The translations under genes and the position numbers were made by a program. A model generated the notes under the pieces. The model was given only the letters and a program-made list of their open reading frames with translations. It was not told the DNA's origin and did not search any database. Positions 18,757 to 32,065 of a stretch of DNA of 64,000 nt are shown in pieces; the first letter of the stretch is position 1; the number at the start of each line of letters is the position of its first letter. The stretch is from Clostridiaceae bacterium (GTDB taxonomy: Bacteria > Bacillota > Clostridia > Saccharofermentanales > DTU023), in NCBI GenBank assembly GCA_012838795.1, contig DUOO01000003.1, positions 69,663 through 133,662 of the forward strand. Direction: 5' to 3'.

Positions 18757-18783
18757 GTTTATCTGTCCGGCGAAGAGTTGTGA

Positions 18784-18812
18784 TTGAAGATTTAGTAGTT
18801 TCATAATATAAT
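18784..18812 (+). promoter_or_regulatory. Sigma-A-type promoter for fba
   Basis: TTGAAG (18784-18789), exactly 17 nt, TATAAT (18807-18812). It sits about 70 nt upstream of the fba RBS AAAGGAG. Confidence 0.6.
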
Positions 18813-18882
18813 ATACATACTCACTAACTTATTGATTTTAAAAAGTTTAATAAATAATATTTTAATTTAAAGGAGAATTCAA

Positions 18883-19818
18883 ATGGCATTAGTAACAACA
18901 GAAAAAATGTTTAAGGAAGCATATGATGGTGGCTATGCAATAGGTGCTTTCAATGTAAATAACATGGAAATTGTCCAAGGTATCACAGAAGCGGCAAATG
19001 AATTAAATTCACCTTTGATTTTGCAAGTTTCTTCCGGTGCCAGAAAATATGCAAAACATACGTATTTGATGAAATTAGTCGAAGCCGCAGTTCAGGAAAC
19101 CGATATTCCGATTGCTTTACATTTGGATCACGGAGATACTTTTGAATTATGTAAAAGTTGTATTGACGGTGGTTTTACCTCGGTAATGATTGACGGTTCA
19201 CACTTAGACTATGAAGATAATGTTGCTTTAACCAAACGGGTTGTTGAATATGCCCATGCACACGGTGTTGTTGTTGAAGCAGAATTAGGACGTTTAGCCG
19301 GTATTGAAGATGATATTAATGTATCGGCTGAAGATTCAAGCTACACAGATCCGGCACAAGTTGAAGACTTTGTAACACGTACCGGTTGTGACTCATTGGC
19401 AATTGCGATCGGAACCAGCCACGGAGCTTATAAATTCAAACCAGGTAAAGAGATCAAATTAAGATTTGACATTTTAGATGAAGTGGCAAGAAGATTACCC
19501 GGTTTTCCAATTGTTTTACATGGCGCCAGCTCGGTAATTCCTGAATTCGTTGAAATGATCAACGCCAACGGCGGTGCATTAGAAGATGCGTTAGGCTGTC
19601 CGGAACCGATGCTCAGAGAAGCAGCTCGTGGAGCAGTTTGCAAAATCAATATTGACTCGGATTTACGTTTGGCCATGACAGCTTCAATCAGACGTGTCTT
19701 TAATGAATCTCCGTCAGAGTTTGATCCTCGTAAGTATTTAGGACCAGGCCGGGATGCCATTCGTGATCTGGTCAGACATAAGATTACCGCTGTTTTAGGC
19801 TCAGACGGCAAAGCATAA
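18883..19818 (+). CDS. fba: Class II fructose-1,6-bisphosphate aldolase
   Basis: 311-aa ORF with class II aldolase motifs (ALHLDHGDTFE, AIAIGTSHGAYKF, LVLHGASS-like VLHGASSV). Confidence 0.95.
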   Translation: MALVTTEKMFKEAYDGGYAIGAFNVNNMEIVQGITEAANELNSPLILQVSSGARKYAKHTYLMKLVEAAVQETDIPIALHLDHGDTFELCKSCIDGGFTSVMIDGSHLDYEDNVALTKRVVEYAHAHGVVVEAELGRLAGIEDDINVSAEDSSYTDPAQVEDFVTRTGCDSLAIAIGTSHGAYKFKPGKEIKLRFDILDEVARRLPGFPIVLHGASSVIPEFVEMINANGGALEDALGCPEPMLREAARGAVCKINIDSDLRLAMTASIRRVFNESPSEFDPRKYLGPGRDAIRDLVRHKITAVLGSDGKA

Positions 19819-19844
19819 ACGATCTATTTTGATTGCTTTATTAA

Positions 19845-19885
19845 AAGGATGTATCAGCAATAATGTTATACATCCTTTTTTTATT
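19845..19885 (+). terminator. Rho-independent terminator after fba
   Basis: Perfect 10-bp stem AAGGATGTAT (19845-19854) / ATACATCCTT (19868-19877), followed by a T-run. Confidence 0.85.
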
Positions 19886-20047
19886 ATATTAATTGAGATA
19901 GATAGGGCGGATAGAATATCAAAACTCAATACAATCCTGATTCAAATAATCTGAATTTGTGACAAACACACAAGCCGAGAACGTAAAGTTTGATAAAAAT
20001 GGCAATATGCATAATATAATAATTATGATATTTTATTATAAGGTAAG

Positions 20048-20068
20048 GTGGTAATACCACTCAACCAA
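20048..20068. promoter_or_regulatory. Candidate GntR operator, copy 1 (upstream of the regulator gene)
   Basis: GTGGTAATACCAC palindrome (20048-20060) followed by CAACCA. It has the same TGGTAA-N-ACCA-NN-TTACCA layout as copies 2 and 3. Confidence 0.55.
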
Positions 20069-20081
20069 TCTGAATAGTTAG

Positions 20082-20789
20082 ATGGTTAATATGGAATATA
20101 ATACAATAATCGATAAGAAGAGTGTCAGTCAACAGATAATAGATCTTATTTTACAAGAAATAATAGAGGGTAGATTAAAGCTGGGGGACAGAATCTTAAA
20201 TGAAAGAGAATTTGCCGCAGAACTGGGTGTATCCCGTGTACCTTTACGCGAAGCGATTTCGGCTTTATCACTATTAGGAATTCTTACACCGAAACAAGGA
20301 GAAGGTACTTTTGTAACAAATTTCAATTCAGAAAGATTCAGTAAAATAATTTTCGCAAACGTCAAACTTCAAAATATATCGCAACAGGATATATTCGATG
20401 TAAGAAAAGATTTTGAATGCAGTGCAGCAAAATATGCTGCTAAAAGAGCAACTAAAGAAGATATTAAAAAAATAAAGCACTATTATGATTTACATAAAAA
20501 AACAATAGATCAGTATCTTTCAGGAGAAGGAAATTTATTATCAGTAACAAAAGCAGATATGCAATTCCATGATGCAATTGCATCAGCAGCAAACAATGAA
20601 TTTTTTAAGCAGTTTGTGGATGCCCTGCACTATTCAATAAAGTATATGCATTCAATATATAAAAATAAAAAAGATGAATTGAATATATTTTCAACTCATC
20701 ATAAGAAAATCTTGGATGCAATAGAAGAAGGAAATCCTGATTTAGCTCATAAGAACATGTCGGAACATCTCAATACAATTGTTTTCTGA
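20082..20789 (+). CDS. GntR-family transcriptional regulator, FadR/FCD subfamily
   Basis: 235-aa ORF with an N-terminal wHTH (ERELAAELGVSRVPLREAISAL-like: EREFAAELGVSRVPLREAISAL) and an all-helical C-terminal FCD-like domain. An alternative ATG lies at 20091. Confidence 0.88.
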   Translation: MVNMEYNTIIDKKSVSQQIIDLILQEIIEGRLKLGDRILNEREFAAELGVSRVPLREAISALSLLGILTPKQGEGTFVTNFNSERFSKIIFANVKLQNISQQDIFDVRKDFECSAAKYAAKRATKEDIKKIKHYYDLHKKTIDQYLSGEGNLLSVTKADMQFHDAIASAANNEFFKQFVDALHYSIKYMHSIYKNKKDELNIFSTHHKKILDAIEEGNPDLAHKNMSEHLNTIVF

Positions 20790-20850
20790 TTAACAAATGA
20801 ATAATTAATTTTGATTGAATGAGAAATAAAGGTAAATATTTTTTCGACAA

Positions 20851-20871
20851 ATGGTAATACCACATTACCAC
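20851..20871. promoter_or_regulatory. Candidate GntR operator, copy 2
   Basis: ATGGTAATACCACATTACCAC. TGGTAATACCA is a perfect palindrome. A TATAAT lies at 20886-20891, just downstream. Confidence 0.55.
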
Positions 20872-20912
20872 TAAGAAAAGCAATATATAATCAAGAAAAG
20901 GGTTTAATATTT

Positions 20913-20945
20913 CTATTAATGGTAACACCATATTACCATTAATAG
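20913..20945. promoter_or_regulatory. Candidate GntR operator, copy 3, embedded in a 13-bp perfect inverted repeat
   Basis: CTATTAATGGTAA (20913-20925) and TTACCATTAATAG (20933-20945) are exact reverse complements. The core ATGGTAACACCATATTACCAT (20919-20939) matches copy 2 at 18 of 21 positions. Confidence 0.55.
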
Positions 20946-21098
20946 AATGTGACATTGCTGCTTTAATAATAAAAAAAGAAATGGAGGGAGAAGTAAAAAA
21001 CTGAATAATTGTAGGCAGGTAATTTTTTAACAAATTTTAGTTTGTTAAGCGGATGGATGAAACAAATTAAGTATTAAAGATTAGGAGTTTGAATTGTT

Positions 21099-22175
21099 AT
21101 GAAAAAAAGTATTTTTAAAAAAGTATTGAGCTTATTGTTAGTCAGCATTTTGATATTTGCTATGGCTGCATGCAGTAAAAAAGAAACTAAAGAAGACGAG
21201 AAAAAAGAGGACGTCAAAGAAGAATCAAAAGAAGAATTAAAGGAAGAGGAAAAAGAAGAAGAAAAGGAAGAGGAAGAGGCTTCAGATTCAAAAGAAAAAT
21301 ATCGAATAGTCTATGCTATTTGTGATAAAGAAACCACAACAGCGGTTGCTTCTGAAGAGCGCATGAAAGAACTTGAAAAAGAACACGATAATATCGAGTT
21401 TACTTATATGGCTAACAGTAATGCAGATACGAATGTAGCTATCGAAAATGCGCGTAATGTTATTACATTGAAACCGGATTTGTATATTAATTACCTGGTC
21501 AGCGCGGCAAGTGAGCGAGTCGGAGAAATGATGGCCGAAGCCGGTCAACCAATGCTTTCTGTACAATCACGTTGTGGCGATACCCCGCTCTGTGCTATTG
21601 ACAATGTCCAAATCGGTCATGATATGGCAGTGGCTCTTACCGATTATTATAAAGAAAACTGGGCAGATGAAGAAGATGTTCAAATCCTTTTTGCCAATAT
21701 GCCTGACTCAGGTCAAATGTTTGTAGACAGACAAACCGGATCTGAAGAATATTTTGCTCAGGAAATTCCGGATCTTCCACAGTCATTGATTAACGGACAC
21801 GGCAACATGGAAACAAACAGACAGATGTTCGCTGATTTCTTAACCGCTCATCCTGATTCAAAGGTTTTAGTTTGGGCTCATATTGATGAACCGGCATTCG
21901 GTATATTAGCCGCAGCTGAAGCAGCTCACAGAACAGACGATATTGTAATTGTAAGTACCGGCGGTATAGCAGATTTTTATGCGGAAATGCAAGAAGAAGG
22001 CAGCCCGTTATTAGGAACAGTGGATTATTTCCCCGATAAATGGTCTGACACAATTTTGGAAGTAGCATTGGATATGCTTGAGGGCAAAGAAGTTCCGGAT
22101 ACAACTGTACTTTATACAGAATTGGTTACATTAGAGAATCTGGCGGAATTGCGTCCTGAATATGTAATCGATTAA
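21099..22175 (+). CDS. Sugar ABC transporter substrate-binding lipoprotein (PBP type I, ribose-binding-like)
   Basis: 358-aa ORF with a signal peptide and lipobox (IFAMAAC), a Glu/Lys-rich tether, then a periplasmic-binding-protein fold. Confidence 0.8.
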   Translation: MKKSIFKKVLSLLLVSILIFAMAACSKKETKEDEKKEDVKEESKEELKEEEKEEEKEEEEASDSKEKYRIVYAICDKETTTAVASEERMKELEKEHDNIEFTYMANSNADTNVAIENARNVITLKPDLYINYLVSAASERVGEMMAEAGQPMLSVQSRCGDTPLCAIDNVQIGHDMAVALTDYYKENWADEEDVQILFANMPDSGQMFVDRQTGSEEYFAQEIPDLPQSLINGHGNMETNRQMFADFLTAHPDSKVLVWAHIDEPAFGILAAAEAAHRTDDIVIVSTGGIADFYAEMQEEGSPLLGTVDYFPDKWSDTILEVALDMLEGKEVPDTTVLYTELVTLENLAELRPEYVID

Positions 22176-22206
22176 CAGTTTCTGCCTGTGAGGAGAGGAA
22201 AACGCC

Positions 22207-23712
22207 ATGAACATAATTGAAGCGAGGAAAATTTGTAAATCATTCGGCGGTATAAGCGCAGTAAGTGACGTTGATTTTGAATTACGAAAAGGCGAGATAC
22301 ATTCAATCATCGGTGAAAACGGTGCAGGGAAATCAACTTTTATCAAAATGATTTCCGGTGATTACATTGCGGATTCCGGGACAATAACATTCGAAGGGCG
22401 GGAAGTAAAATTAACCCGCCCTGAAGATGCAACATCACTGGGGATCAGAACGATTTATCAGGAATTCAATTTGATTCCAACCATGAGTGTTGCAGAGAAT
22501 ATATTTTTGGGCGATTTACCGCTCAAAAATAAAGTTGTTTCTTGGCCGGAAATGTATCAAAAAGCTCATGACTTATTAGCCAGACTGGGTGTAAATATCG
22601 ATTCACGAAAAAATGTCAGTGAACTCACGGTTGCAGAACAACAGATGGTAGAGATATGTAAAGCACTTTCGAAAGACATGAAGGTATTGATACTTGATGA
22701 ACCGACAGCTGCACTTAACGAAAATGAAAGCCAGAAATTATTTACATTAATCAGAACATTATCATCCCAAGGGGTGAGTATTGTATATATCTCTCATTAC
22801 TTGAATGAAATAATGGATATTTCTGAAAGAATATCCGTCTTCCGTGATGGCAAAAAAGTTACCACTGTAAACAAAGAAGACACAAAAGTATCAGATTTGG
22901 TTACATATATTGTCGGTCATGAAATGGGCCATCAATATAAGGAACGACAGGTCGAGTTCGGAGCAACAATATTAGAAGTAAATTCAATTTCAAATAATTA
23001 CTTAACAGATATTACTTTTCAAGTAAAGAGTAAAGAAATAGTCGGCCTATATGGTTTGTTAGGAGCAGGTCAACTAGAGATCTGCCGCACCCTATTTGGT
23101 GATTTACCGATAAATAGTGGTGAAGTGAAAATCAACAATAAATCTGTTGCTATTTCAAGCCCGATTGAAGCAATGAAAAACGGCATCGGTCTTGTTCCTT
23201 CAGACAGAAAAAACGAAGGTTTAATGATGAATATGTCTGTAGGAGTGAATTCTACATTCAGTGGTACATATTTGCGTTCGAAACATGGAGTTATAGATTT
23301 TGCGAAAGAGAGAGAAGTTTTTGAAAAGTTAAAGCAAGATGTGCAAATTAAAACCACAGGGTACAACCAAAACATTACAGATCTTTCCGGCGGCAATCAA
23401 CAAAAAACATTGATATCGCGCTGGATGGATTATGATTCCAGTGTATTGATACTGGCAGATCCCACCCGTGGAGTAGACATAGGTGCGAAATCCGAAATAT
23501 ATGATCTTTTATATGATTTTTGTAATTTAGGTAAAGCTGTTCTGTTTATGTCATCTGATTTACCTGAAGTTTTAGGTGTTGCTGACAGACTGATTTTGTT
23601 TAGTGACGGTCGGATTCTGACTGAATGTAATTGTAATGAAGTCAGTCAGGCGGATGTGTTGAATTTATTAAATGCCAGCGAAGAACAGAGTGAAGAAACT
23701 GTTGCTTCTTAA
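22207..23712 (+). CDS. Sugar ABC transporter ATP-binding protein (tandem ABC domains, RbsA/MglA-like)
   Basis: 501-aa ORF with Walker A GENGAGKST, a degenerate second P-loop, signature LSGGNQQK and Walker B ILDEPT/ILADPT. Confidence 0.9.
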   Translation: MNIIEARKICKSFGGISAVSDVDFELRKGEIHSIIGENGAGKSTFIKMISGDYIADSGTITFEGREVKLTRPEDATSLGIRTIYQEFNLIPTMSVAENIFLGDLPLKNKVVSWPEMYQKAHDLLARLGVNIDSRKNVSELTVAEQQMVEICKALSKDMKVLILDEPTAALNENESQKLFTLIRTLSSQGVSIVYISHYLNEIMDISERISVFRDGKKVTTVNKEDTKVSDLVTYIVGHEMGHQYKERQVEFGATILEVNSISNNYLTDITFQVKSKEIVGLYGLLGAGQLEICRTLFGDLPINSGEVKINNKSVAISSPIEAMKNGIGLVPSDRKNEGLMMNMSVGVNSTFSGTYLRSKHGVIDFAKEREVFEKLKQDVQIKTTGYNQNITDLSGGNQQKTLISRWMDYDSSVLILADPTRGVDIGAKSEIYDLLYDFCNLGKAVLFMSSDLPEVLGVADRLILFSDGRILTECNCNEVSQADVLNLLNASEEQSEETVAS

Positions 23713-23729
23713 ACAGAACGGAGGACAAA

Positions 23730-24701
23730 ATGTCGAAAAAATTAGGAAATATTAAAGCAAGACTATCATCATCAGGTTCAGTGTTTGGTCTGTTTTTGGT
23801 TTATATTTTATTAGTTATTTTACTTTCATTTTTATCAAAATATTTTTTTCAATTAAGTAATTTTGCCAATATCGGAATTTCGATAAGTGTGTATGGTATT
23901 GCAGCCCTTGGTGTTACGATGATTATTTTATCCGGTGGCCTTGATATGTCAGTAGCAGGCAATATGGCATTATCGAATGTAATTTCCGTGCTGCTTTTAA
24001 CGAAAACCGATCTCAGTCCATATCTGATAATGATAGTTTGTGTCTTAGTAGGATTAATTGTAGGAATAATAAACGGTTTTTTAGTTACCGCGTTTGATCT
24101 GCATCCGACGATCGTAACGCTGGGAACTGCAGGAATAACCAGAGGTACGGCATTTGTAATATGTGGCGGCATGTCAATGATGCACGATTCAAAAGAGATT
24201 AAATTTTTAGGCTCAGGAAAAATTCTGGGTATACCGGTAAGTCTGCTGTTTTTCGTAGTACTTTTGATAATTATGTTTTTAGTGCTGAAATACACTACTT
24301 TCGGTCGTTCCGTCTATGCGATTGGCGGAAATAGAAGAGCCAGTCGTTTAGCAGGAATTTCAGTGAAGAAAACACAAATGTTAATTTTTTCTATATCAGG
24401 GATGTTAGCGGGAATTGCAGCTCTGATCCTAACCGGTACTACCGGCGGCGGAGGAGGCAATGCAGCAACCGGATGGGAGAGTGATATCATCAGTGCCGTT
24501 CTTTTGGGAGGAACCAGTATTGCAGGAGGAAAAGGTACAGTATTTGGTACCGCGCTGGGTATCTTATTTATCGGTACGTTAAATAACGGCATGTCATTAT
24601 TAGGTACAAATTCATATGTACAAATGATCTTGAGGGGCCTGGTATTAATAATTGCGGTTGTTATAGATAGTGTCAGAAACAGAAAAGCTATAGCTAAGTA
24701 A
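23730..24701 (+). CDS. Sugar ABC transporter permease (RbsC-like)
   Basis: 323-aa polytopic ORF with a Gly-rich C-terminal segment (TGTTGGGGGNAATG), as in branched-chain/monosaccharide (BPD_transp_2) permeases. Confidence 0.88.
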   Translation: MSKKLGNIKARLSSSGSVFGLFLVYILLVILLSFLSKYFFQLSNFANIGISISVYGIAALGVTMIILSGGLDMSVAGNMALSNVISVLLLTKTDLSPYLIMIVCVLVGLIVGIINGFLVTAFDLHPTIVTLGTAGITRGTAFVICGGMSMMHDSKEIKFLGSGKILGIPVSLLFFVVLLIIMFLVLKYTTFGRSVYAIGGNRRASRLAGISVKKTQMLIFSISGMLAGIAALILTGTTGGGGGNAATGWESDIISAVLLGGTSIAGGKGTVFGTALGILFIGTLNNGMSLLGTNSYVQMILRGLVLIIAVVIDSVRNRKAIAK

Positions 24702-24748
24702 ATCGATAAGTATTGAGAAACATTAATTGAAAACAAAGGAGAGTAAAA

Positions 24749-25789
24749 ATGACAAAAGACTATTTTAAAAGAGTAAGTGCCAAAACCCCGACCCGTTTTT
24801 GGATAAACAATGTAACTGAAGAGCAAGCTCGATTGGCAATAGAAGCCGGAGCAATTAATTGCACACAAAATCCGACATATCCGTCAAAAATATTAGGTAA
24901 CCCTGTGTTAGGAGAGGGACCGGATAATTTGCTTAAGAAATTGATGGAAGAAGATGCGGACAACGAATCTGTATTAACAAAATTTCAGCTTCATAGTGTA
25001 AAGAAAATTTGTGATATTTTCTTACCGGTTTTTGAAAAATCAAAAGGTAAAGAAGGGTATGTAACTATTCAATCAAGTCCGCTTGATGAATCCTTCGAAA
25101 ATATCGTAACCTGTGCTGAAATGTACAAAGATGTTGCACCGAATATTATGATAAAAATTCCTGCAACGGAATCAGGTCTGGAAGCGATACGTTATCTTTG
25201 TGAACAAGGGTATGCGGTATTAGCTACTGAAGTTATGAGTGTAGCACAAGCAATTGATGTATGTGAAATTTATGAAGAATGTTTAAAGAAAAACTCTGAC
25301 GTAAAGACTTTTGCGTTTGCGCATATTGCAGGGATATTCGATGAGGAATTGTCTGCTCAGGTAGAAGCGCAAAACATCGATGTAGACAGAGATGCTTTGT
25401 GGCAAGCAGGCATAATTGTTGCAAAAAAGATCAGACGTATGATGGATGATCGCGGATATAAAGCAGAAATGCTTTCAGGCGGTGCGAGGGGATTGCATCA
25501 CTTTACCGAGATGGTAGGTGCCCGTTCAGGCATTACCATTAATTGGCAGGGAACCGCTGACAAATTATTAGAAGCAAATGGTGTCGTGATTGATCGTTTC
25601 TCTTGTGCGCCTGCTCCGGATGTTATTGATGAATTATTAGAAAAAATCCCCGATTTTAAACGAGCATATTTACGTGACGGATTAAAAGCAGAAGAATATG
25701 AAGATTTTGCTCCGGTGCGCAGATTTAGAAATCAGTTTGAAAATGGATGGAATAAAGCATTAGATTATATTGCTGATCGAAGAAAATAA
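24749..25789 (+). CDS. Transaldolase-family (class I aldolase fold) protein
   Basis: 346-aa ORF with N-terminal TRFWINNVTEEQ...NCTQNP and the Schiff-base lysine context IMIKIPAT. Confidence 0.75.
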   Translation: MTKDYFKRVSAKTPTRFWINNVTEEQARLAIEAGAINCTQNPTYPSKILGNPVLGEGPDNLLKKLMEEDADNESVLTKFQLHSVKKICDIFLPVFEKSKGKEGYVTIQSSPLDESFENIVTCAEMYKDVAPNIMIKIPATESGLEAIRYLCEQGYAVLATEVMSVAQAIDVCEIYEECLKKNSDVKTFAFAHIAGIFDEELSAQVEAQNIDVDRDALWQAGIIVAKKIRRMMDDRGYKAEMLSGGARGLHHFTEMVGARSGITINWQGTADKLLEANGVVIDRFSCAPAPDVIDELLEKIPDFKRAYLRDGLKAEEYEDFAPVRRFRNQFENGWNKALDYIADRRK

Positions 25790-25835
25790 TAAATATTTTT
25801 TTATTAAATATCAAATATATAACAGAAAGGAATAG

Positions 25836-26954
25836 GTGAATGTTATGTCAGATAATAATGTAGTAAAAGATGACGGTAGAGGAATATTGTCCGGTACATG
25901 GGTATCAAGAGATCAGGATATTGATCGGGATCAGTGGTTAAGAGATTGTTTTCCTGAATGGGGTACATTCTTAAATCAAGAAATAGAAAACTTTGAAGTT
26001 CCGGTAGGCCAAGTAGCCTTATGGTGGTGCGGCGGTACATCATGGATTTTAAAAACTGATGCCGGCGGGATTTTCTGGATAGATCAATATTGCGGCCCGT
26101 CAATATACACAGAGCGAGTAGGAAATTGCGGTGTTTGCAGACAAGGCGGTGCTGTGAGTATCAATTGGCTGCGATTAAATGTACAAGTTATTGATCCTTG
26201 GAAATTCAACAGAGTAGACGGTGTTTTCTGTACACATATGCATCAAGATCATACGGATCTTTATGCTGTTAAAGCTGCTTTGAAAACAACAGATGCTCCA
26301 TTTTATGCGGCACCGAAAGCTGCTGAAAAATTGAGAGTGTTTAAGGTTCCGGAAGAACGTATCCATGTTGCGAGGGTGGGAGAATCCGTGCGAGTCCCGG
26401 GAGCGGAGGTAGATTTCTTAGTTTGTTATGACGACACGGCGATCAGAACTACAGCCGGTGATGAACTGTTACCATATGAAGAAGCAGCTGTATCATTGTT
26501 GTTTAAGACTTCCGGAGGAAACATTTTATTTTTAGCCGATACTTGGTATAACGACGGTTATGTAGAAGTTGCAGCTAAATATGATATAGATGTAGCTCTG
26601 TTTAATATGGGATTTAATCCTCCGGGAGCTACTGATAAAATGACACCGTATGATGCTGCCAGATTAGGTCAAACTCTCAAAGCAAAACTATTGATTCCGT
26701 ATCACTATGATAATTGGGCTAATTGTACAGGAGATCCTGCAATGCTTACTCGTCAGTTGGAGTATATCGTTTCCGATTTAACACCTGAAACAAAAACGGT
26801 GATTATGGCATGTGGCGGACGTTTCCTTTATCCCCAGGATCAAGATATTAAACGTTATAGATATCCTGATGGTAGTGAAGATTTCAAATATGAGCGTTCA
26901 GAACATTATAAACGTAGAAAAAAATATGAAGATTCTCTGAAACAGGAGAAATAA
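25836..26954 (+). CDS. UlaG-like metallo-beta-lactamase-fold hydrolase (putative phospho-sugar lactonase)
   Basis: 372-aa ORF with the HxHxDH motif (HMHQDHTD). The N-terminus (FPEWGTFLNQEIE...VALWWCGGTSWILKT) parallels E. coli UlaG. The start could be GTG 25836 or ATG 25845. Confidence 0.75.
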   Translation: MNVMSDNNVVKDDGRGILSGTWVSRDQDIDRDQWLRDCFPEWGTFLNQEIENFEVPVGQVALWWCGGTSWILKTDAGGIFWIDQYCGPSIYTERVGNCGVCRQGGAVSINWLRLNVQVIDPWKFNRVDGVFCTHMHQDHTDLYAVKAALKTTDAPFYAAPKAAEKLRVFKVPEERIHVARVGESVRVPGAEVDFLVCYDDTAIRTTAGDELLPYEEAAVSLLFKTSGGNILFLADTWYNDGYVEVAAKYDIDVALFNMGFNPPGATDKMTPYDAARLGQTLKAKLLIPYHYDNWANCTGDPAMLTRQLEYIVSDLTPETKTVIMACGGRFLYPQDQDIKRYRYPDGSEDFKYERSEHYKRRKKYEDSLKQEK

Positions 26955-26976
26955 AGGGAATATAAACCCTTTCCGG

Positions 26977-27109
26977 ACAAGTACAATGAAGCACTCACAA
27001 AACGATTATGATTTCAATTGCTGATGAAGCACCAGCATGCACGTATATGATTTTAATTGCTGATGATATTCCTCGCTAAAAGACCTACATGTGCTTCATT
27101 GTACTTTGT
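26977..27109. repeat. Inverted-repeat-bounded structured element (candidate leader RNA or MITE-like element)
   Basis: The 18-nt arm ACAAGTACAATGAAGCAC (26977-26994) pairs with GTGCTTCATTGTACTTTGT (27091-27109), with one extra T. Inside are two 21-nt direct repeats, TATGATTT[C/T]AATTGCTGATGA (27007-27027 and 27046-27066). A hairpin, TGCTG-ATGAAGCAC-CAGCA (27019-27037), carries in its loop a copy of part of the left arm. Confidence 0.6.
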
Positions 27110-27156
27110 CGTAAAAAGGATGTTGTTTTTGTTAACAACACAAGGAGTGTGAATTT

Positions 27157-28098
27157 ATGAGTAAAAAAAGAAGAGAAAAAACAATTATAACCGCTTCAAT
27201 TACAGGAGCAATTCATACGCCAAGTATGTCGCCGTATCTTCCTAAAGGGAAAGACGAGATTATTCAAAACGCTGTTGACGCGTGGAAAGCGGGAGCTGCA
27301 ATTGTACATATTCATGCGAGAAAACCTGTAACGGGGGAGCCGACTTCTGACTTGGATTACTTCAGAGAAATATTAAACGGTATTAAAGAACAGTGTAATG
27401 TAGTTATCGGGATTACTACCGGTGGCGCATTAGGAATGACCGTCGAAGAACGTTTTGCTGTTTTATCCGAATTTCAACCTGAAATGGCAACTTGTAATGC
27501 AGGGACATCCAATTTTGTTTTGTCCGAATTGACAAAAACATTCGATAAACCGCAGTTTGATTGGGAAGAGCCGTTTTTATTAAGAACATATGACAGCTTT
27601 TTCAAAAACACATTCGCTGATATAGAACATGCATTAACTTTGATGAATGAACACCGGATCAGACCGGAATTCGAGGTTTTTGATCTTGGACAAATTAATA
27701 CTGTTGCTTATTTCAGGCGTAAAGGACTTGTTAAAGATCCGATATATATTCAGTTTGTACCCGGAACATTGGGTGGAATACCGTTAAGTAACGATAATAT
27801 TACATTTATGATTAAAACGGCTCAACAGTTATTGGGTTCAGATATAAGGTACTCATTAGTAGGATCAGGACGCAGAATGTTCCGTGCAGAAACTTTCCAT
27901 GTTTTACAAGGCGGCAATGTAAGGGTCGGGATGGAAGACTCTTTATATATCAATATTCAAGGTGAACTTGCTCGCAATAATGCTGAACAAGTAACAAAAA
28001 TTAAAAGTATTTTAGAATTACTGGATTATGAAATAGCCAGTTCAGATGAAGCCAGAGAAATGTTACAGCTTAAAGGTGTGGATAAAGTCAATTTCTAG
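27157..28098 (+). CDS. Beta-keto acid cleavage enzyme family protein (BKACE, DUF849)
   Basis: 313-aa ORF. The N-terminus (IITASITGAIHTPSMSPYLPKGKDEII...AGAAIVHIHAR) is typical of 3-keto-5-aminohexanoate cleavage enzyme homologues. RBS AAGGAG lies at 27142-27147. Confidence 0.8.
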   Translation: MSKKRREKTIITASITGAIHTPSMSPYLPKGKDEIIQNAVDAWKAGAAIVHIHARKPVTGEPTSDLDYFREILNGIKEQCNVVIGITTGGALGMTVEERFAVLSEFQPEMATCNAGTSNFVLSELTKTFDKPQFDWEEPFLLRTYDSFFKNTFADIEHALTLMNEHRIRPEFEVFDLGQINTVAYFRRKGLVKDPIYIQFVPGTLGGIPLSNDNITFMIKTAQQLLGSDIRYSLVGSGRRMFRAETFHVLQGGNVRVGMEDSLYINIQGELARNNAEQVTKIKSILELLDYEIASSDEAREMLQLKGVDKVNF

Positions 28099-28126
28099 AG
28101 GGTAAGTTTATAATATAAATATAGTC

Positions 28127-28152
28127 AGCCAGTGATAAAGTTATCACTGGCT
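28127..28152. promoter_or_regulatory. Perfect 12-bp inverted repeat (hairpin or protein-binding palindrome)
   Basis: AGCCAGTGATAA (28127-28138) and TTATCACTGGCT (28141-28152) are exact reverse complements. No T-run follows, so it is not a canonical terminator. Confidence 0.5.
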
Positions 28153-28297
28153 AAATGAAGCATCAGACAGCGGTTTGTTCTATGTGAATATGAAATTTTT
28201 TTCATGGAATCCCAATAAGACGGGGATAATTTGTTCTGGAGAACAATCTCAGGTTTTATTTTTTGTGGATGTAAGCGGACAATTTAGTGAGGTTAAT

Positions 28298-28708
28298 ATG
28301 AGTTTCGTCTATTCAGAATTAAAAGTGGGTGATTCGAATAATTTTCAAAAAACAATTACAGTTGCCGATATAACATTATTTGCAGCGATATCAGGTGATT
28401 TTAATCCTATGCACGTCAGCGCACAATTTGCGAAAAAAACTCAATACAAACAAAGAATTGCACATGGAGCACTAACTTCCGGATTAATTTCCGCTGTGAT
28501 AGCAAATACTTTTCCTGCTTCTATATACATATCGCAATATGTTGAATATTTAGCACCTGTGTTTATAGATGATACCATTACAGCAATTATTGTTTGTAAA
28601 GAAAAATTAGGGAAAGGCAGAGTGAGATTACAAACAAAATGTATTAATCAAAATGATGTATTAGTTGTTGATGGCGAAGCTATTGTTAGATTAGCCAGAG
28701 ATAGATAA
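28298..28708 (+). CDS. MaoC-like (R)-specific enoyl-CoA hydratase / hot-dog fold dehydratase
   Basis: Motif FAAISGDFNPMHV...RIAHG. The ORF track starts at 28175, but ATG 28298 follows GTGAGG with good spacing and gives the usual ~136-aa size. Confidence 0.8.
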   Translation: MSFVYSELKVGDSNNFQKTITVADITLFAAISGDFNPMHVSAQFAKKTQYKQRIAHGALTSGLISAVIANTFPASIYISQYVEYLAPVFIDDTITAIIVCKEKLGKGRVRLQTKCINQNDVLVVDGEAIVRLARDR

Positions 28709-28775
28709 TTGAACAACCGGCAAAAATTTAAATTTAACTCGTGGATAATTGGTTTATTTTTTTTGAATGATAGTA

Positions 28776-28784
28776 TGGTATAAT
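28776..28784 (+). promoter_or_regulatory. Extended -10 promoter element upstream of the kinase gene
   Basis: TGGTATAAT (TGnTATAAT) about 40 nt upstream of ATG 28825. No good -35 at proper spacing. Confidence 0.35.
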
Positions 28785-28824
28785 ATATCAAAATGCAAAT
28801 AAACAATAGAAATGAGGTTTAAGC

Positions 28825-29898
28825 ATGAAATTAAAAGAAAATTGCAAGTATAATTTAGTTATCCCGACAAGTATGGGACTCAGACTAACACCTGTGGATC
28901 GGATGCCGGTACATATGAGTAATCAATATCTTATGACTTCGACCAGTGCGGAATCAAATGTAGGACAAATATCTGCTTCTTTGGGTAAAAAAGTTAAATT
29001 ACTAACTGCCTTTGTGGAAGACAATGCAATTTCTGATTTTATCAAGGGCGAATTGCGTAAACGCAATATTGACTTTGAAGGTCCTGATGTTCCAACAGGC
29101 GGACCATGGGGTTATCGCCATCACATCAATATTGCTGATAGTGGTTATGGTATGCGCGGACCTCATGTTCTCAATGACAGAGCCGGTGAAGTAGGTCGTT
29201 CTTTGAACGCGAAATATTTTGATCTCGACAGGATTTTCAAAGAAGAAGGAGCACAAATCATTCATATCTCAGGTTTGATTGCAGCTTTATCCGCAGATAC
29301 GAGTGAATTCTGTTTGGAAGTTGCAAGAGCAGCTAAAGCCAACGGTACCAAGATAGCCTTTGATTTAAATCACAGAGCATCTTTCTGGGTAGGTCGTGAG
29401 GAAGAATTACGTGCAGCTTTTGATGAAATTGCCGGCTATGCAGATATCTTGATCGGCAATGAGGAAGATTATCAATTAGCTCTGGGAATCAAAGGACCTG
29501 AAGCAGGTGGTGTCGATATTGCTGATAAGATTGACGGTTTCAAAGAAATGGTCAAACGTGTTCATGAGGCATATCCTAACTGTCAAGTATTTGCAAATAC
29601 CTTACGTGATGTAAAAAGTGCAAATGAACATGAATGGGGTGCAATCCTCTACGTCAATGATAATTTTTATGTTGTTGAGCCACGCCCGATTCCGGTACTT
29701 GACCGCATTGGTGGCGGAGACGGATTTGTTGGTGGTTTGCTTTACTCAATTCTCAGCGGTTGGGATGAAGACAAATGGGTAAAATTTGCTTGGGCAACCG
29801 GTGCTTTGGCTTCAACCTTACTCACAGACTATGCTTGTCCTGCAAATGAAGAACAAGTTTGGGCAATTTACGAAGGTAATGCTCGAGTAAAACGATGA
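28825..29898 (+). CDS. PfkB-family sugar-acid kinase, 2-dehydro-3-deoxygluconokinase (KdgK)-like
   Basis: 357-aa ORF with N-terminal SMGLRLTP...SAESNVGQISASLG, ATP/anion-hole motif GGGDGFVGGLLY and NEEDY. Confidence 0.8.
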   Translation: MKLKENCKYNLVIPTSMGLRLTPVDRMPVHMSNQYLMTSTSAESNVGQISASLGKKVKLLTAFVEDNAISDFIKGELRKRNIDFEGPDVPTGGPWGYRHHINIADSGYGMRGPHVLNDRAGEVGRSLNAKYFDLDRIFKEEGAQIIHISGLIAALSADTSEFCLEVARAAKANGTKIAFDLNHRASFWVGREEELRAAFDEIAGYADILIGNEEDYQLALGIKGPEAGGVDIADKIDGFKEMVKRVHEAYPNCQVFANTLRDVKSANEHEWGAILYVNDNFYVVEPRPIPVLDRIGGGDGFVGGLLYSILSGWDEDKWVKFAWATGALASTLLTDYACPANEEQVWAIYEGNARVKR

Positions 29899-29953
29899 CA
29901 AATTTCGATAGCACTGTTTGTCGGAGGATGACTCTGTATGAAAGAGGTGAAGA

Positions 29954-31399
29954 ATGTCTGATATTGGCTTAATCGGTTTAGCTGTTATGGGCGAAAACTT
30001 AGTGATGAACATGGAAAGCAACGGCTTTTCTGTTTCGGTATATAATCGCACAACTTCTAAGGTAGATGATTTTATTAATGGCAGGGCAAAGGGAAAAAAT
30101 ATTCAAGGTGCTTATTCTTTGGAAGAATTAGTTGAACAAGTCGACAGACCGAGAAAAATTATGATAATGGTTAAAGCCGGTAAACCTGTTGACAATATAA
30201 TTGAACAATTAATTCCTTTACTGGATGAAGGTGATATTTTGATTGATGGAGGAAATTCACATTTCCCGGATACCGAAAGACGCACTAAATATATTGAGAG
30301 TAAAGGCTTGCTGTATATCGGCAGCGGTGTTTCCGGTGGTGAAGAGGGTGCTTTAAAAGGACCATCTCTAATGCCGGGTGGTTCGCCGGATGCATGGCCG
30401 CTCATAAAACCAATATTCCAATCAATAAGTGCTAAAGTTGATGAAGGTGCCGCTTGTTGTGAATGGGTAGGCAGTGGTGGTGCCGGTCATTTTGTCAAAA
30501 TGGTTCACAATGGAATTGAATATGGCGATATGCAGCTTATTTGTGAAGTTTATCAGATAATGAGAGATTATCTGGGCATGACAAATGAAGAAATGCAAGC
30601 TGCATTTGCCAAGTGGAACGAAGGTAAGCTTGACAGTTACTTGATTGAAATTACTGCAGATATCTTGGGCTACAAAGATGAGAATGGCGAAGCTGTCGTA
30701 GATTATGTTTTAGATGCTGCCGGTCAAAAAGGCACCGGTAAATGGACCGGCATTAGTGCTTTAGAAGAAGGAGTACCGCTGACATTAATAGTGGAAGCAG
30801 TTTTTTCGCGTTGCCTCAGTTCACTTAAAGATGAAAGAATAGAAGCAGCTAAAATATTAAAAGGGCCTGAAGTTAAATTTGAAGGGGATAAAGAGCCTAT
30901 ACTCAAGGCTTTACATGATGCTTTATATGCTTCAAAGATTGTTTCTTATGCTCAGGGATATGCTCTGATGAGAACAGCCTCTGAAACATATGATTGGGAT
31001 CTCCAATATGGTGATATCGCTTTGATGTGGCGTGGTGGTTGTATTATCCGCAGTGCCTTTTTAGGTAAGATTAAAGAAGCCTTTGATAAACAACCCGGTT
31101 TGAAAAATTTACTCTTAGATGACTATTTCCGCAAGGAAATTGATGCTGCTCAAGCAGGTTGGCGTGAAGTTGTAGCTGAAGCGGTTAAAGCTGGTATTCC
31201 GGTACCCGCTATTTCATCTGCTCTTGCCTATTATGACGGTTATCGAACAGAAAATCTTCCTGCCAACTTATTACAAGCGCAAAGAGACTATTTTGGAGCT
31301 CATACTTATGAAAGAACAGATCGTCCTCGCGGTCAATTTTTCCATACCAATTGGACCGGCGAGGGTGGTGACACTGCAGCTTCAAACTACGATGTATAA
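29954..31399 (+). CDS. gnd: 6-phosphogluconate dehydrogenase, decarboxylating
   Basis: 481-aa ORF with NADP fold [12 protein letters not shown] plus [21 protein letters not shown] and [10 protein letters not shown]. Confidence 0.95.
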
Positions 31400-31438
31400 T
31401 TATCATTATCAGCTATTTTATTATTATATATGTTTAGT

Positions 31439-31480
31439 AAAGATCAGACGAGAATATTAATTCTCGTCTGATCTTTAATT
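31439..31480 (+). terminator. Terminator hairpin after gnd
   Basis: Perfect 17-bp stem AAAGATCAGACGAGAAT (31439-31455) / ATTCTCGTCTGATCTTT (31460-31476). The trailing T-tract is short (TTTAATTT). Confidence 0.7.
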
Positions 31481-31541
31481 TGGTTGAAAATTATTTAGAT
31501 ATTAATTCTATAATTGAAACAATATTTAAAAGTCAATAAAT

Positions 31542-31580
31542 AGAAAATCGCTTTCAACATAATATTGAAAGCGGTTTTCT
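31542..31580. terminator. Second hairpin; possible bidirectional or backup terminator
   Basis: AGAAAATCGCTTTCAA (31542-31557) pairs with TTGAAAGCGGTTTTCT (31565-31580), with one G-U pair. No clean T-run on either strand. Confidence 0.4.
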
Positions 31581-32065
31581 ATAGAGGTAAGTATTTTAAG
31601 GATTGTAGTGTGTAAGTTTTCTTTAATACAATCAATTCTATCATATAATTATTTATTTTTTCAATTTATTTACATTGTTATTATATAATATGCCATAAAA
31701 AAACCATAAAAATTAATAATTTATACAATGTTTGAATATTATATCAGTTTTCAGCAATGAATTTAAATATTATTGAATATTTATATAATTGTAACATAAT
31801 AACTAAAAATTATCCTTATTATCTTAAAACTCTAAAATCTTATTTGTATGATTTTTTCAATCTATTAAACATCAAAATTTTAAAATTTATGAAATTGCTG
31901 TATCAATCAGGACCTTTCAGAGTATTAATTTGTTAATTCGTATAAAAATAACAATCGAATCTTTACATAATCATATTAAACAAGTAGATTTAAGCTTAAT
32001 TATCATATTGAATGACGATTTAATTTTAATAATTAAATGATAAATTTCAGAAATGATTTGCAACT

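Follow-up and report, generated by a model that had tools for sequence, protein, structure and literature searches.

Organization of the locus

Ten open reading frames, all on the + strand, lie between two strong hairpins in the window, which is the whole 64-kb stretch of DNA that was analysed. The first gene (20082–20789) encodes a 235-residue GntR regulator with an FCD effector domain (PF00392 and PF07729). It reaches no equivalog; its top model, LldR, gives 127 bits where 311 are required. The next three genes encode an importer of the CUT2 (ribose-type, RbsBAC-like) ABC family: a lipoprotein substrate-binding protein (21099–22175; PF13407, Peripla_BP_4), an ATPase with two ATP-binding cassettes (22207–23712; PF00005 twice) and an AraH/RbsC-like permease (23730–24701; PF02653, BPD_transp_2). 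None of these reaches an equivalog cut-off; the ATPase is AraG/XylG/RbsA-like with every score under threshold, and the binding protein matches PDB ribose-binding proteins only weakly. The binding protein also contains a Glu/Lys-rich linker 3' of its lipobox.

The importer is followed by a transaldolase/FSA-superfamily protein belonging to an uncharacterised subfamily of about 348 residues (hereafter TAL-like; 24749–25789; PF00923, TAL_FSA, 87 bits), a UlaG-like Mn/Zn hydrolase of the metallo-beta-lactamase (MBL) fold (25836–26954; Lactamase_B_2) and a BKACE (27157–28098; PF05853, 313 bits). The final three genes encode a 136-residue MaoC-type (R)-specific enoyl-CoA hydratase/dehydratase (28298–28708; PF01575), a PfkB-family sugar-acid kinase that has been called KdgK-like (28825–29898; PF00294) and the decarboxylating 6-phosphogluconate dehydrogenase, gnd (29954–31399). 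The latter is a true equivalog (TIGR00873, 780 bits, cut-off 427). The genes, domains, boundary hairpins and operator copies reported in an earlier note on this DNA are all present, with the ten reading frames at the positions and with the domains given there. Several digester metagenomes, independent of one another, contain the identical ten-gene arrangement with 100% identity, and it is therefore not an assembly artefact.

Operators, terminators and other non-coding elements

When one mismatch is allowed, the palindromic motif TGGTAATACCA occurs at only three sites in the 64 kb, at 20049, 20852 and 20920, and all three fall in two promoter regions, those of gntR and of the transporter. This corresponds to 5 strand-hits where 1.2 are expected, a number that is reached in 0 of 100 shuffles. 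Copy 1 (20049–20059) is 23 nt upstream of the gntR start codon and is a predicted site of autoregulation. Copy 2 (20852–20875) consists of TGGTAATACCA followed by CATTACCA and lies in the transporter promoter region, while copy 3, TGGTAACACCA (20911–20947), sits within a 15+15-nt perfect palindrome. The position of copy 1 is conserved in the closest relative, L011, and in the Treponema loci L021 and L050; copy 2 is conserved in L011 as well, at position 6158. The L011 copies precede gntR and the binding-protein gene, and those of Treponema precede gntR, the permease gene and the MBL gene. The earlier view that the locus is under GntR control is supported. In the same 64-kb scan, no copy with one mismatch or fewer was found upstream of BKACE, MaoC or PfkB.

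The upstream boundary is the intrinsic terminator of fba (19843–19886, + strand), which has a 12-bp perfect stem and a 13-nt loop (19843–19879) and then a T-run. The downstream boundary is a + strand hairpin with an 18-bp stem (31438–31477), the strongest in the terminator scan. That scan returned 20 terminator-like sites in 18.5–33 kb against 8.1 expected, and predicted no + strand intrinsic terminator between 20790 and 31438. As none is predicted from the transporter promoter to the gnd terminator, a common transcript of MaoC, PfkB and Gnd with the preceding genes is possible in this strain. Within the locus, a conserved, structured intergenic element on the + strand (26970–27115) forms a long stem enclosing two 26-nt direct repeats, and has no Rfam match. 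A 12-bp perfect hairpin without a T-run (28127–28152, +) marks the junction of a conserved block, which ends at 28105, and a variable block. Finally, the extended -10-like sequence TGGTATAAT (28776–28784, +), located 41 nt upstream of the PfkB start, is a possible separate promoter for PfkB; the site is missing from the output of the consensus scan.

The three core enzymes

Alignment of the TAL-like protein to transaldolases and FSA from the PDB equates K136, T160 and Q108 with K85, T109 and Q59 of FSA, and these residues are invariant in 15 TAL-like relatives. The AF2 model (pLDDT 92.6) has a TM of 0.81 to 3R5E, so that the transaldolase fold is confirmed at the level of a predicted structure. 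The protein had been proposed to be a pentose-phosphate enzyme. This is not supported: Gln108 takes the place of the catalytic Glu of transaldolases, and members of the family mostly have TRAP transporters and sugar-acid enzymes as neighbours. In addition, the protein misses every transaldolase equivalog cut-off.

The UlaG-like hydrolase matches UlaG (2WYL) over its full length with an E value of 6e-58, and the HxHxDH motif is intact as HMHQDH. UlaG is also its top NCBIfam model, although the 229 bits do not reach the cut-off of 306. On the strength of this similarity the enzyme is probably a lactonase, and lactone opening, which had been suggested previously, would be the most plausible entry reaction. 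The hydrolase is not accompanied by a PTS, UlaDEF or a kinase, and its substrate is therefore probably not phosphorylated. The usual partners of its subfamily are GntR regulators, TRAP or ABC transporters, 3HCDH, DhaKL and IlvD.

The BKACE is full length, and its VHIH and GMEDS metal and catalytic motifs align to those of BKACEs in the PDB. On NF053538, the model for the 3,5-dioxohexanoate enzyme, its score of 404 bits is short of the cut-off of 430, and the MBL-linked BKACEs of L015, L094 and L157 score 373–386 bits.

Recurrence of the core in other loci

Genes for the TAL-like, UlaG-like and BKACE proteins occur together in eight other loci (L007, L011, L015, L021/L145, L049, L050, L168 and L170), which come from Clostridiales, Saccharofermentanales, Oscillospiraceae and Treponema. 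The gene order is shuffled, and the transporter is either a CUT2 ABC importer or a member of the amino-acid-permease family. GntR homologues with 41–75% identity are present in six of the eight (L007, L011, L021, L050, L168 and L170), and identity is only 32% and 29% for the regulators of L015 and L049. MaoC, PfkB and Gnd are absent from all eight. The core is conserved, and no description of the GntR/transporter/TAL-like/UlaG-like/BKACE module was found in the literature, in line with the earlier suggestion of a new system. The association is not general to the families involved: among 50 loci of at least 8 kb that contain the UlaG-like subfamily, a BKACE is present in 9 and a TAL-like gene in 3. 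Most of the UlaG-like loci are without both partners, as are most TAL-like loci, and the three-enzyme link is therefore restricted to a minority clade of each family.

That each enzyme family is found mostly in other contexts could mean that the neighbours are functionally unrelated and were brought together by historical accident, in a rearrangement-prone part of the genome. Close relatives do differ here, with a duplicated fba, a relocated ilvD and a repeated 100-nt element. Against this stand the recurrence of the three families with GntR across two phyla in spite of the shuffled order, the similarity of the regulator in six of the eight loci, and the operator sequence kept in L011 and the Treponema loci, so that we consider an accident highly improbable.

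A thiolase, the conserved partner of the core, is found in most of the eight core loci, and no gene for it exists anywhere in the window. L050 and also L157 carry both Ptb and Ack, and L021/L145 carries Ptb. The same partnership with thiolase is seen in the phloroglucinol cluster of Clostridium scatologenes (PMC10470551), and the core could then encode a redox-free phloroglucinol/triacetate variant. Here, the MBL enzyme would hydrolyse a cyclic beta-tri- or diketone, or a ring of the triacetic-acid-lactone type, to 3,5-dioxohexanoate, which BKACE would convert to acetoacetyl-CoA and acetoacetate, followed by thiolase. The BKACE is at 94% of the 3,5-dioxohexanoate-enzyme cut-off, with the MBL-linked BKACEs above scoring on the same model; genes of the 3HCDH family, to which the triacetate-forming dehydrogenase belongs, are beside the UlaG-like gene in 15 of the 50 loci; L092–L095 carry an aromatic-acid-type MFS transporter; and the habitats (rumen, gut, termite and digester) are polyphenol-rich. 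However, the BKACE score is still under the cut-off, neither phloroglucinol reductase nor cyclase-family cyclohydrolase is among the genes annotated in these loci, the importer belongs to the ribose/sugar type, the one homologue of the hydrolase with a characterised function is a lactonase of sugar phosphates, and the TAL-like enzyme is left without a role. Consequently, we view this variant as unlikely.

L015 points to a different route. In this locus the core is found with an aldose 1-epimerase, a 3HCDH dehydrogenase, a tartronate-semialdehyde-reductase-like gene, a glycerate kinase and a deoC that passes its equivalog cut-off. This gene content is consistent with an anaerobic oxidative 2-deoxy-sugar pathway, in which a 2-deoxy-aldonolactone is hydrolysed, C3 is oxidised by an enzyme encoded elsewhere, and BKACE splits the resulting 2-deoxy-3-keto-aldonate into acetoacetate and a glyceryl-CoA-type product. 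A precedent in Pseudomonas and Paraburkholderia combines lactonase, dehydrogenase, BKACE, glycerate kinase and thiolase (PMC6365646), and the importer of the window is ribose-like. The proposal is nonetheless doubtful, as a dehydrogenase that could oxidise C3 is encoded neither in the window nor in L007 or the Treponema loci, the window is without 3HCDH, glycerate kinase and deoC, and the TAL-like enzyme again has no explained role.

MaoC, PfkB and Gnd

The closest relative, L011, is colinear with the window from valS to the end of BKACE, at 84–88% DNA identity. It aligns without a break to 16220–28105, and the alignment ends 7 nt past the BKACE stop codon. Protein identity is 93–98% for the binding protein, ATPase, permease, TAL-like protein, MBL hydrolase and BKACE, and 75% for GntR. 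Other genes occupy the place of MaoC, PfkB and Gnd, and similarity returns at the leuA leader.

The start of the MaoC gene is revised, most likely to the ATG at 28298, with AGTGAGG just 5', which yields a protein of 136 residues. Its homologues are 136–150 residues long and sit in unrelated CoA-ester clusters; MaoC is strain-variable and lies outside the conserved module, being absent not only from L011 but from all the other loci (L007–L170) retrieved in two scans for relatives of the locus. Homologues of the PfkB kinase are about 70% identical across phyla (68–75% in L171–L175), and a 6PGD gene accompanies the kinase in five of five genomes sampled, directly adjacent in L171, L172 and L175 and at most about 3 kb away in L173 and L174. 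Four of these loci (L171, L173, L174 and L175) also have both an SDR and a LarA-like gene, and the last of them UxaC as well; L172 has a UxuB-like gene beside the pair and neither SDR nor LarA-like gene. PfkB and gnd constitute an independently conserved module. The kinase reaches no KDG-kinase equivalog, and the Eda partner is absent both here and in the five sampled relatives. With neither Eda here nor PTS or UlaDEF by the UlaG-like gene, the enzymes are detached from their textbook partners, as had been pointed out. The kinase probably makes 6-phosphogluconate, which would be the reason that Gnd and not Eda is its partner.

These findings bear directly on the pathway put forward in the earlier note, in which all nine enzyme and transport genes act together: a lactone or sugar acid is imported, opened and phosphorylated by PfkB, and enters the pentose-phosphate route via Gnd and the TAL-like protein, with BKACE and MaoC as a side branch. 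The layout is in its favour, as the genes share one strand, have short gaps, lie between two strong hairpins with no predicted + strand terminator inside, and keep the same arrangement in several metagenomes. But L011 retains GntR through BKACE without MaoC–PfkB–Gnd, which the other core loci also lack; PfkB and Gnd are conserved alone elsewhere; the operator is absent before BKACE, MaoC and PfkB; and the TAL-like protein has the Gln substitution and falls short of the transaldolase models. When relatives were checked for a split into independently conserved modules, exactly this was found (the core, PfkB with Gnd, and MaoC elsewhere), and a single pathway is quite unlikely. Instead, we favour, with moderate confidence, a locus made up of three separate units: a conserved GntR-controlled module for uptake, ring opening and the cleavage of a beta-keto acid, a stray MaoC gene, and the PfkB and gnd pair.

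Proposed mechanism and substrate

From the observed gene content, motif statistics, module boundaries and conservation, we infer the repressor role and every catalytic step of this three-unit arrangement as follows. Unit A would be the conserved regulon (20049–28105). The FCD-type GntR repressor would bind TGGTAATACCA in the gntR and transporter promoters, and the presence of a small-acid effector would permit expression of the ribose-type ABC importer and the three enzymes. The UlaG-like metallo-hydrolase would open the ring of what is most likely a lactone or enol-lactone, producing a beta-keto acid. BKACE would then move the C1–C2 acetate unit of this acid onto acetyl-CoA, yielding an acetoacetate-type acid and an acyl-CoA by a route with no kinase or redox step. 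The TAL-like protein would be an FSA-type Schiff-base aldolase, with the Lys kept and Gln for Glu, that cleaves or builds a C–C bond next to a keto group, either in a small product or in the sugar-like chain. In genomes other than this one, thiolase would take over the CoA product, with Ptb/Ack in some Treponema-type loci. In this strain the stray MaoC dehydratase (unit B) may take a 3-hydroxyacyl-CoA product, and PfkB and Gnd (unit C) would be a separate pair leading from an aldonate to the pentose-phosphate pathway.

The clues to the substrate conflict with one another. An ascorbate-type 3-keto-aldonolactone is a tentative candidate, and so is a triacetate-like polyketide or phloroglucinol-type ring; a 2-deoxy-aldonolactone is a somewhat weaker one. 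That the substrate is something else carries a little more weight than any of these, although it too is far from likely. The product of a UlaG-type reaction on ascorbate would carry a 2-hydroxyl, and to our knowledge BKACE has never been shown to take such a substrate.

Comparison with known systems

The PfkB kinase is, like that of the KdgK/Eda hexuronate branch, a PfkB-family enzyme, and sources annotate it as 2-dehydro-3-deoxygluconokinase. It differs in being without Eda and in having Gnd as its conserved partner. The TAL-like protein shares with the FSA/transaldolase family the TIM-barrel fold, the Schiff-base Lys with its neighbouring Thr, and Gln at the position of FSA Q59. In contrast, it is only 14–20% identical to solved members, is 346 residues long with a C-terminal half that is unalignable, and would, by positional inference, have Asn-Asn in its first strand at the expected catalytic Asp; its contexts are acid-sugar clusters and not the pentose-phosphate pathway. 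The hydrolase has the fold of UlaG, the L-ascorbate-6-phosphate lactonase of the Ula system, with the metal motif kept and similarity over the full length, and the UlaG reaction likewise converts a lactone to a 3-keto acid. Unlike UlaG, it is under the equivalog cut-off (229 against 306) and has no PTS, UlaDEF or kinase.

In the oxidative deoxyribonate pathway, a lactonase is followed by BKACE (Price et al. 2019, PMC6365646). Lactone hydrolysis and the conversion of a beta-keto sugar acid by BKACE with acetyl-CoA to an acyl-CoA and acetoacetate would be common to both systems, both cluster with a transporter and regulator, and thiolase acts downstream, as it would in the relatives of the core; the two lactonases are compared here by reaction. 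That pathway differs in needing an SDR for the 3-keto acid and a glycerate kinase, neither of which is in the window, in having no transaldolase-like enzyme, and in its aerobic proteobacterial hosts.

BKACE and thiolase also operate together in phloroglucinol degradation by Clostridium scatologenes (PMC10470551). Unlike this route, the window is without phloroglucinol reductase, cyclase-family cyclohydrolase and 3-hydroxy-5-oxohexanoate dehydrogenase, and has a sugar ABC transporter, an MBL-fold hydrolase and a TAL-like enzyme. The two would be alike in hydrolytic ring opening, in the use of a BKACE (triacetate acetoacetate-lyase) and thiolase, and in their setting in anaerobic Clostridia, and the phloroglucinol BKACE is the nearest named relative of the window BKACE, at 404 of 430 bits.

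Organization of the locus

The locus (20048–31480) comprises ten plus-strand genes, which by ORF calling occupy 20082–31399. [quoted passage not shown] The importer is of the ribose type (CUT2) and consists of a lipoprotein binding protein (SBP), an ATPase with two cassettes and a permease, each of which falls short of its equivalog cut-off. Residues 1–70 of the binding protein (21099–22175) hold a lipobox (…FAMAAC) and then a Glu/Lys-rich, low-complexity linker of about 45 residues, which leads into a Peripla_BP_4 domain. The hairpins thought to bound the locus are both borne out, at 19843–19879 with a T-run behind it and at 31438–31477 with an 18-bp stem. The ten-gene arrangement was recovered at 100% identity from several digester metagenomes. 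Horizontal transfer was considered and rejected, the locus G+C (0.34–0.40) being the same as that of the window. In the remainder of the 64-kb window, thiolase, 3HCDH, glycerate kinase, deoC, LarA, UxaC and others were absent by tblastn.

Both flanks are housekeeping: valS and fba precede the locus, and a leuA operon, headed by a T-box-like leader, follows it. A scan of the whole window at Rfam gathering thresholds gave zero matches, and scanning the intergenic regions by E-value brought up a single match, the sub-threshold T-box (32197–32373, plus strand) 5' of leuA (32435), which scored 52 bits on RF00230 (E 2.5e-10; gathering score 93). A GGGTGGTACCGCG motif and a terminator (32367–32386) are visible in this leader. 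The class-II fructose-bisphosphate aldolase gene fba (18883–19818) is tandemly duplicated (2684–3619 and 4156–5091) in L011, the closest relative. An intergenic element of about 100 nt, which contains a hairpin, has one copy in the window (31539–31637) and two in L011 (3887–3983 and 18976–19074); both L011 copies sit at the edges of rearranged segments, and the element may be a recombination hotspot.

The regulator and its candidate operator

The regulator consists of an N-terminal GntR winged helix-turn-helix (PF00392) and a C-terminal FCD domain (PF07729). The three operator copies proposed earlier hold up: with at most one mismatch, TGGTAATACCA occurs at 20049, 20852 and 20920 alone in 64 kb, in promoter regions only. 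This amounts to five strand-hits against 1.2 expected, a number reached in 0 of 100 shuffles. As judged by its sequence, TGGTAATACCA is a candidate operator of the palindromic T.GT...AC.A type expected for GntR/FCD regulators. It is kept in L011 5' of gntR and the SBP gene, and in Treponema before the genes for GntR, the permease and the MBL hydrolase. A search for further copies before BKACE, MaoC or PfkB, allowing up to two mismatches, returned background level only (25 against 17 expected).

A conserved core and a strain-variable segment

The locus was previously read as a single pathway, in which an imported sugar acid or lactone is opened, phosphorylated by the PfkB kinase and passed by Gnd and the transaldolase-like enzyme into the pentose-phosphate pathway, with BKACE on a separate branch. 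The observations behind this reading (genes, hairpins and operators) stand; the unity is supported only in part, as MaoC, PfkB and gnd split off in relatives. The clearest case is L011, a long-read Saccharofermentanales MAG and the closest genome, which aligns continuously with window positions 16220–28105 at 85–87% DNA identity. Protein identity is 93–98% for the SBP, ATPase, permease, TAL-like protein, MBL hydrolase and BKACE, and 75% for GntR. The alignment breaks off 7 nt past the BKACE stop codon. L011 lacks MaoC, PfkB and Gnd and has instead an ilvD that overlaps the BKACE stop codon and two further genes, similarity returning at the leuA leader. Positions 28106–31538 are thus a strain-variable segment, and the junction of the two blocks carries a 12-bp perfect hairpin (28127–28152). 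No plus-strand terminator was predicted within the locus; transcription may thus read through in this strain, which counts against full independence of the units.

Relatives were collected by searching genomes with a TAL-like profile (80 loci) and metagenomes with a UlaG-like profile (80 loci), followed by tblastn and ORF clustering. The TAL-like, UlaG-like and BKACE genes occur together in eight other distinct loci. L011 keeps the window order through BKACE. In Clostridiales (L007/L012) the order is GntR, MBL, BKACE, SBP, permease, ATPase, permease, small MBL, TAL-like and thiolase. In Oscillospiraceae (L015) it is MBL, BKACE, TAL-like, SBP, ATPase, permease, 3HCDH, deoC, a gene resembling tartronate-semialdehyde reductase (TSR) and glycerate kinase, with thiolase, a URO-D-like gene and GntR on the divergent side. 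Treponema (L021/L145 and L050) has permease, GntR, TAL-like, MBL and BKACE, with Ptb, Ack and thiolase close by in L050. The core genes are also present in Treponemataceae (L049) and in two loci whose taxon is not assigned (L168 and L170). GntR homologues are 41–75% identical in six of the eight (L007, L011, L021, L050, L168 and L170), 32% in L015 and 29% in L049; the remaining GntR neighbours in both scans are 21–34% identical. The hosts are strict anaerobes that live in digesters, in the rumen and in the guts of termites and humans.

Conservation of the neighbourhood holds in part: the GntR-to-BKACE set (20049–28105) recurs, and MaoC, PfkB and gnd, found in none of the eight other core loci, do not accompany it. 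In two phyla the gene set and the operator are both retained even though gene order is shuffled and the transporters differ, which argues for one functional unit.

An intergenic element between the MBL and BKACE genes (26970–27115, plus strand) has a stem of about 19 bp enclosing two 26-nt direct repeats (ACGNTTATGATTTYAATTGCTGATGA). The L011 counterpart is 86–90% identical, and the folding z-score is -2.5; an E-value scan gave no Rfam match. The element could be a regulator-binding site or could act in RNA processing or stability.

The PfkB–Gnd pair and MaoC

One third of the locus is an unrelated, independently conserved module. Gnd is a true equivalog (780 bits on TIGR00873, cut-off 427), and the kinase misses the KdgK equivalogs (30 against 400 bits on NF052444 and 95 against 440 on NF041332). 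An extended -10-like sequence, TGGTATAAT, lies 41 nt 5' of the PfkB start. Homologues of PfkB in Clostridia, Spirochaetes and Bacteroidales share about 70% identity, and five of their contexts (L171–L175) were sampled, the hosts being Clostridia and Bacteroidales. All five have a 6PGD gene, which is the immediate neighbour of the kinase gene in L171, L172 and L175 and lies no more than about 3 kb from it in L173 and L174. Four (L171, L173, L174 and L175, the last also with UxaC) encode in addition an SDR and a LarA-like (Lar_N) protein; L172 has a UxuB-like gene and neither of these. The KdgK-like kinase had been said to stand without Eda, and indeed Eda is missing both here and in the five contexts, the partner being Gnd. 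BKACE, MBL and TAL-like genes are likewise missing from L171–L175.

The simplest reading is that the PfkB kinase would supply 6-phosphogluconate to Gnd, which would explain a "KdgK-like" gene without an aldolase partner. The PfkB–gnd loci look like a route that would convert hexuronate or aldonate, by way of gluconate and then 6-phosphogluconate, to ribulose-5-P independently of Eda, and the pairing suggests an exit from hexuronate/aldonate catabolism that bypasses Eda.

The MaoC gene probably starts at 28298 and encodes 136 residues. Homologues with 60–66% identity belong to clusters that encode CoA-transferases, an acyl-CoA ligase, crotonases, 3HCDH and thiolase, and MaoC is absent from every locus of both relative-locus scans (L007–L170).

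The UlaG-like hydrolase

The hydrolase (25836–26954) is similar over its full length to E. coli UlaG and matches UlaG 2WYL over residues 24–349 (E 6e-58). The HxHxDH metal motif is present as HMHQDH, and H134, H136, D138 and H139 are invariant in five relatives. UlaG converts ascorbate 6-phosphate to 3-keto-L-gulonate 6-phosphate and lies beside the ascorbate PTS (UlaABC) and UlaDEF, whereas relatives of the hydrolase lie beside ABC, TRAP or MFS transporters. As the earlier note held, no PTS or UlaD/E/F domain is encoded among the ten ORFs. The score on the UlaG equivalog NF008688 (229 bits) falls below its cut-off of 306. Because of this score and the missing PTS linkage, the hydrolase probably acts on an unphosphorylated ring.

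The UlaG-like subfamily extends beyond the module and is common in human-gut metagenomes, where it belongs to another cluster. This highly conserved cluster (L098–L118 and L155) comprises a divergent GntR, the UlaG-like gene, DctP/Q/M (TRAP), a VOC/glyoxalase-like gene, 3HCDH, DhaK, DhaL, RpiB (DerI-like), a 362-residue protein and IlvD, and may be a non-PTS ascorbate or aldonolactone pathway ending in tetrulose or pentulose phosphate. The 362-residue protein has no Pfam or NCBIfam match, and a profile search found no kinship with the TAL-like protein, with the URO-D-like neighbour (PF01208) seen in several related loci, or with any other partner.

The transaldolase-like protein

The protein encoded at 24749–25789 has a TAL_FSA domain (87 bits) and misses all curated transaldolase/FSA equivalogs, the best scores being 78 against 367, 74 against 234 and 37 against 246 bits. 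Its AF2 model (pLDDT 92.6) indicates a transaldolase TIM-barrel fold, with Foldseek TM scores of 0.81 to 3R5E (C. glutamicum transaldolase) and 0.78 to 3CLM. In the alignments K136, within IMIKIPAT, coincides with K85 of FSA and with the catalytic Lys motif of both 3R5E and 3CLM, and Thr160 with the Thr of FSA and TalB. Gln108, invariant in 15 family members, aligns with FSA Q59 and not with TalB E96, so the catalytic glutamate of a transaldolase is replaced by Gln. The first strand carries an invariant Asn20-Asn21, which from its position would occupy the place of the catalytic Asp. The hhalign comparison with FSA and TalB covers residues 90–170 only, the C-terminal half being not alignable; the FSA reference sequence was checked and is identical to 1L6W. 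Beyond this, a motif-level comparison points tentatively to Ile at the positions of the FSA acid/base Tyr131 and phosphate-binding Arg134, and to Arg247 at that of Lys168, which also binds phosphate in FSA.

The family, of about 348 residues, has about 1,900 matches and is found for the most part next to transporters of the TRAP or Tct type and regulators of the GntR or LacI type. Among the enzymes encoded nearby are Asp/Glu-type racemases, HpcH aldolases, xylose-isomerase-like proteins accompanied by split transketolases, and SMP-30 lactonase/Ldh_2/SDR/FucI-like sets. At least six contexts recur (L010, L013, L014, L019, L023, L036, L053, L058, L069 and others). These are LacI, SMP-30 lactonase, Ldh_2, SDR, a FucI-like protein and HpcH aldolase with a TRAP transporter; a xylose-isomerase-like protein with split transketolase; an Asp/Glu-type racemase with BKACE; a class-II aldolase with a racemase; a Tct transporter with a DRL-type oxidoreductase and Zn-ADH; and a Man-type PTS with a small MBL and a tautomerase. 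A class-II aldolase 35% identical to the fba product belongs to TAL-like trios in Dielma fastidiosa and relatives.

[quoted passage not shown] Its His-x-His (VHIHAR) and Glu-Asp (VGMEDS) motifs, which we take from Kce to be metal-binding, align with their counterparts in PDB BKACEs. The enzyme is far from Kce (237 bits on NF052387, cut-off 382) and from the 3-oxoadipate enzyme (165 bits, cut-off 350), and no aminomutase or dehydrogenase gene of lysine fermentation is found among the ten ORFs, as had been proposed. On NF053538, the 3,5-dioxohexanoate:acetyl-CoA acetone transferase of the phloroglucinol pathway, it scores 404 bits without reaching the cut-off of 430. Other MBL-linked BKACEs score 373–386 bits on this model (L015, L094 and L157) or 248–269 (L007 and L170). 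The phloroglucinol reductase, cyclohydrolase and dehydrogenase partner genes are all missing at the locus. Promiscuity of BKACEs for small beta-oxo acids is documented (PMC11961710).

Proposed mechanism and candidate substrates

For the core as a whole we infer the following mechanism. GntR would repress its own promoter and that of the transporter until an acid intermediate lifts repression. The UlaG-like hydrolase would open the ring of the imported compound to give a beta-keto acid, and BKACE would move an acetate unit onto acetyl-CoA, yielding an acetoacetate-type acid and an acyl-CoA. The CoA ester would then be handled by thiolase in other genomes (with Ptb/Ack in some loci) and possibly by MaoC here. 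The FSA-like enzyme would form or break a C-C bond beside the ketone, a step that would not be universally required.

Clues to the substrate conflict among three candidates. A triacetate-like compound would fit the BKACE score on the 3,5-dioxohexanoate model and the thiolase partner. The UlaG homology points elsewhere, to an ascorbate- or 3-keto-aldonate-like compound, as do Ldh_2, TRAP, 3HCDH, DhaKL and RpiB, which partner the UlaG-like and TAL-like families elsewhere, and a true IlvD with a TSR-like gene after BKACE (L011, L092 and L095). The latter pair would fit a 2-hydroxy-3-oxobutanoate product that is reduced and then dehydrated. A 2-deoxy-sugar-like compound is the candidate to which L015 points, as it carries deoC, 3HCDH, a glycerate kinase and an aldose epimerase.

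Above-cut-off ilvD equivalogs directly follow BKACE in three lineages (L011, 13335–15020; L092, 12212–13879; L095, 9054–10712), the TSR-like gene of L095 lying between BKACE and ilvD. The ilvD of the window (41146–42810) is in an ilvBNCD cluster, 13 kb from BKACE.

Relation to known systems

The locus is made of familiar enzyme families, and its core is best called a catabolic cluster that depends on BKACE, in which the entry hydrolase is new and the aldolase family has no assigned function, not a categorically new system. A bolder proposal has two parts: that the core is a new lactone-fermentation route, with neither kinase nor redox step, in which the UlaG-like hydrolase yields a beta-keto acid and BKACE thiolysis with acetyl-CoA keeps the energy in a CoA ester; and that the TAL-like family (Gln for Glu, Asn for Asp) is a new kind of Schiff-base enzyme, an aldolase or decarboxylase, for unphosphorylated keto-sugar acids. 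That both parts are true is rather unlikely. In such a kinase-free route the lactone could be plant- or host-derived, for example unphosphorylated ascorbate, erythorbate or a polyketide-type beta-keto lactone.

Literature searches on BKACE with lactonase or transaldolase, ascorbate/UlaG, phloroglucinol/triacetate and diketogulonate/erythrulose turned up no account of the module, and a published NetSyn survey of BKACE contexts mentions no MBL or transaldolase context. To our knowledge, BKACE cleavage of sugar-derived beta-keto acids has so far been the subject of one genetic study in aerobic Proteobacteria, besides polyphenol degradation. In the present module, found in strict anaerobes, its partners are a UlaG-type hydrolase and the unassigned aldolase family. 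The locus is a good target for enzyme-function discovery. A solution would give a function to three large unannotated subfamilies, establish an ATP-sparing fermentation of a lactone-type nutrient (vitamin C, deoxy-sugars and polyphenol fragments being possibilities) and correct the labels "transaldolase", "UlaG" and "KdgK" that thousands of genomes routinely carry.

Two known pathways come closest, and between them they supply published precedents for the two halves of the proposed mechanism. In phloroglucinol degradation, ring hydrolysis is followed by BKACE and thiolase (PMC10470551), and in deoxyribonate catabolism a lactonase precedes BKACE (PMC6365646). The oxidative deoxyribonate pathway (Price 2019) consists of lactonase, 3-dehydrogenase, BKACE, glycerate kinase and thiolase, whereas the window has the hydrolase and BKACE only; the Oscillospiraceae locus, L015, holds most of that gene set.
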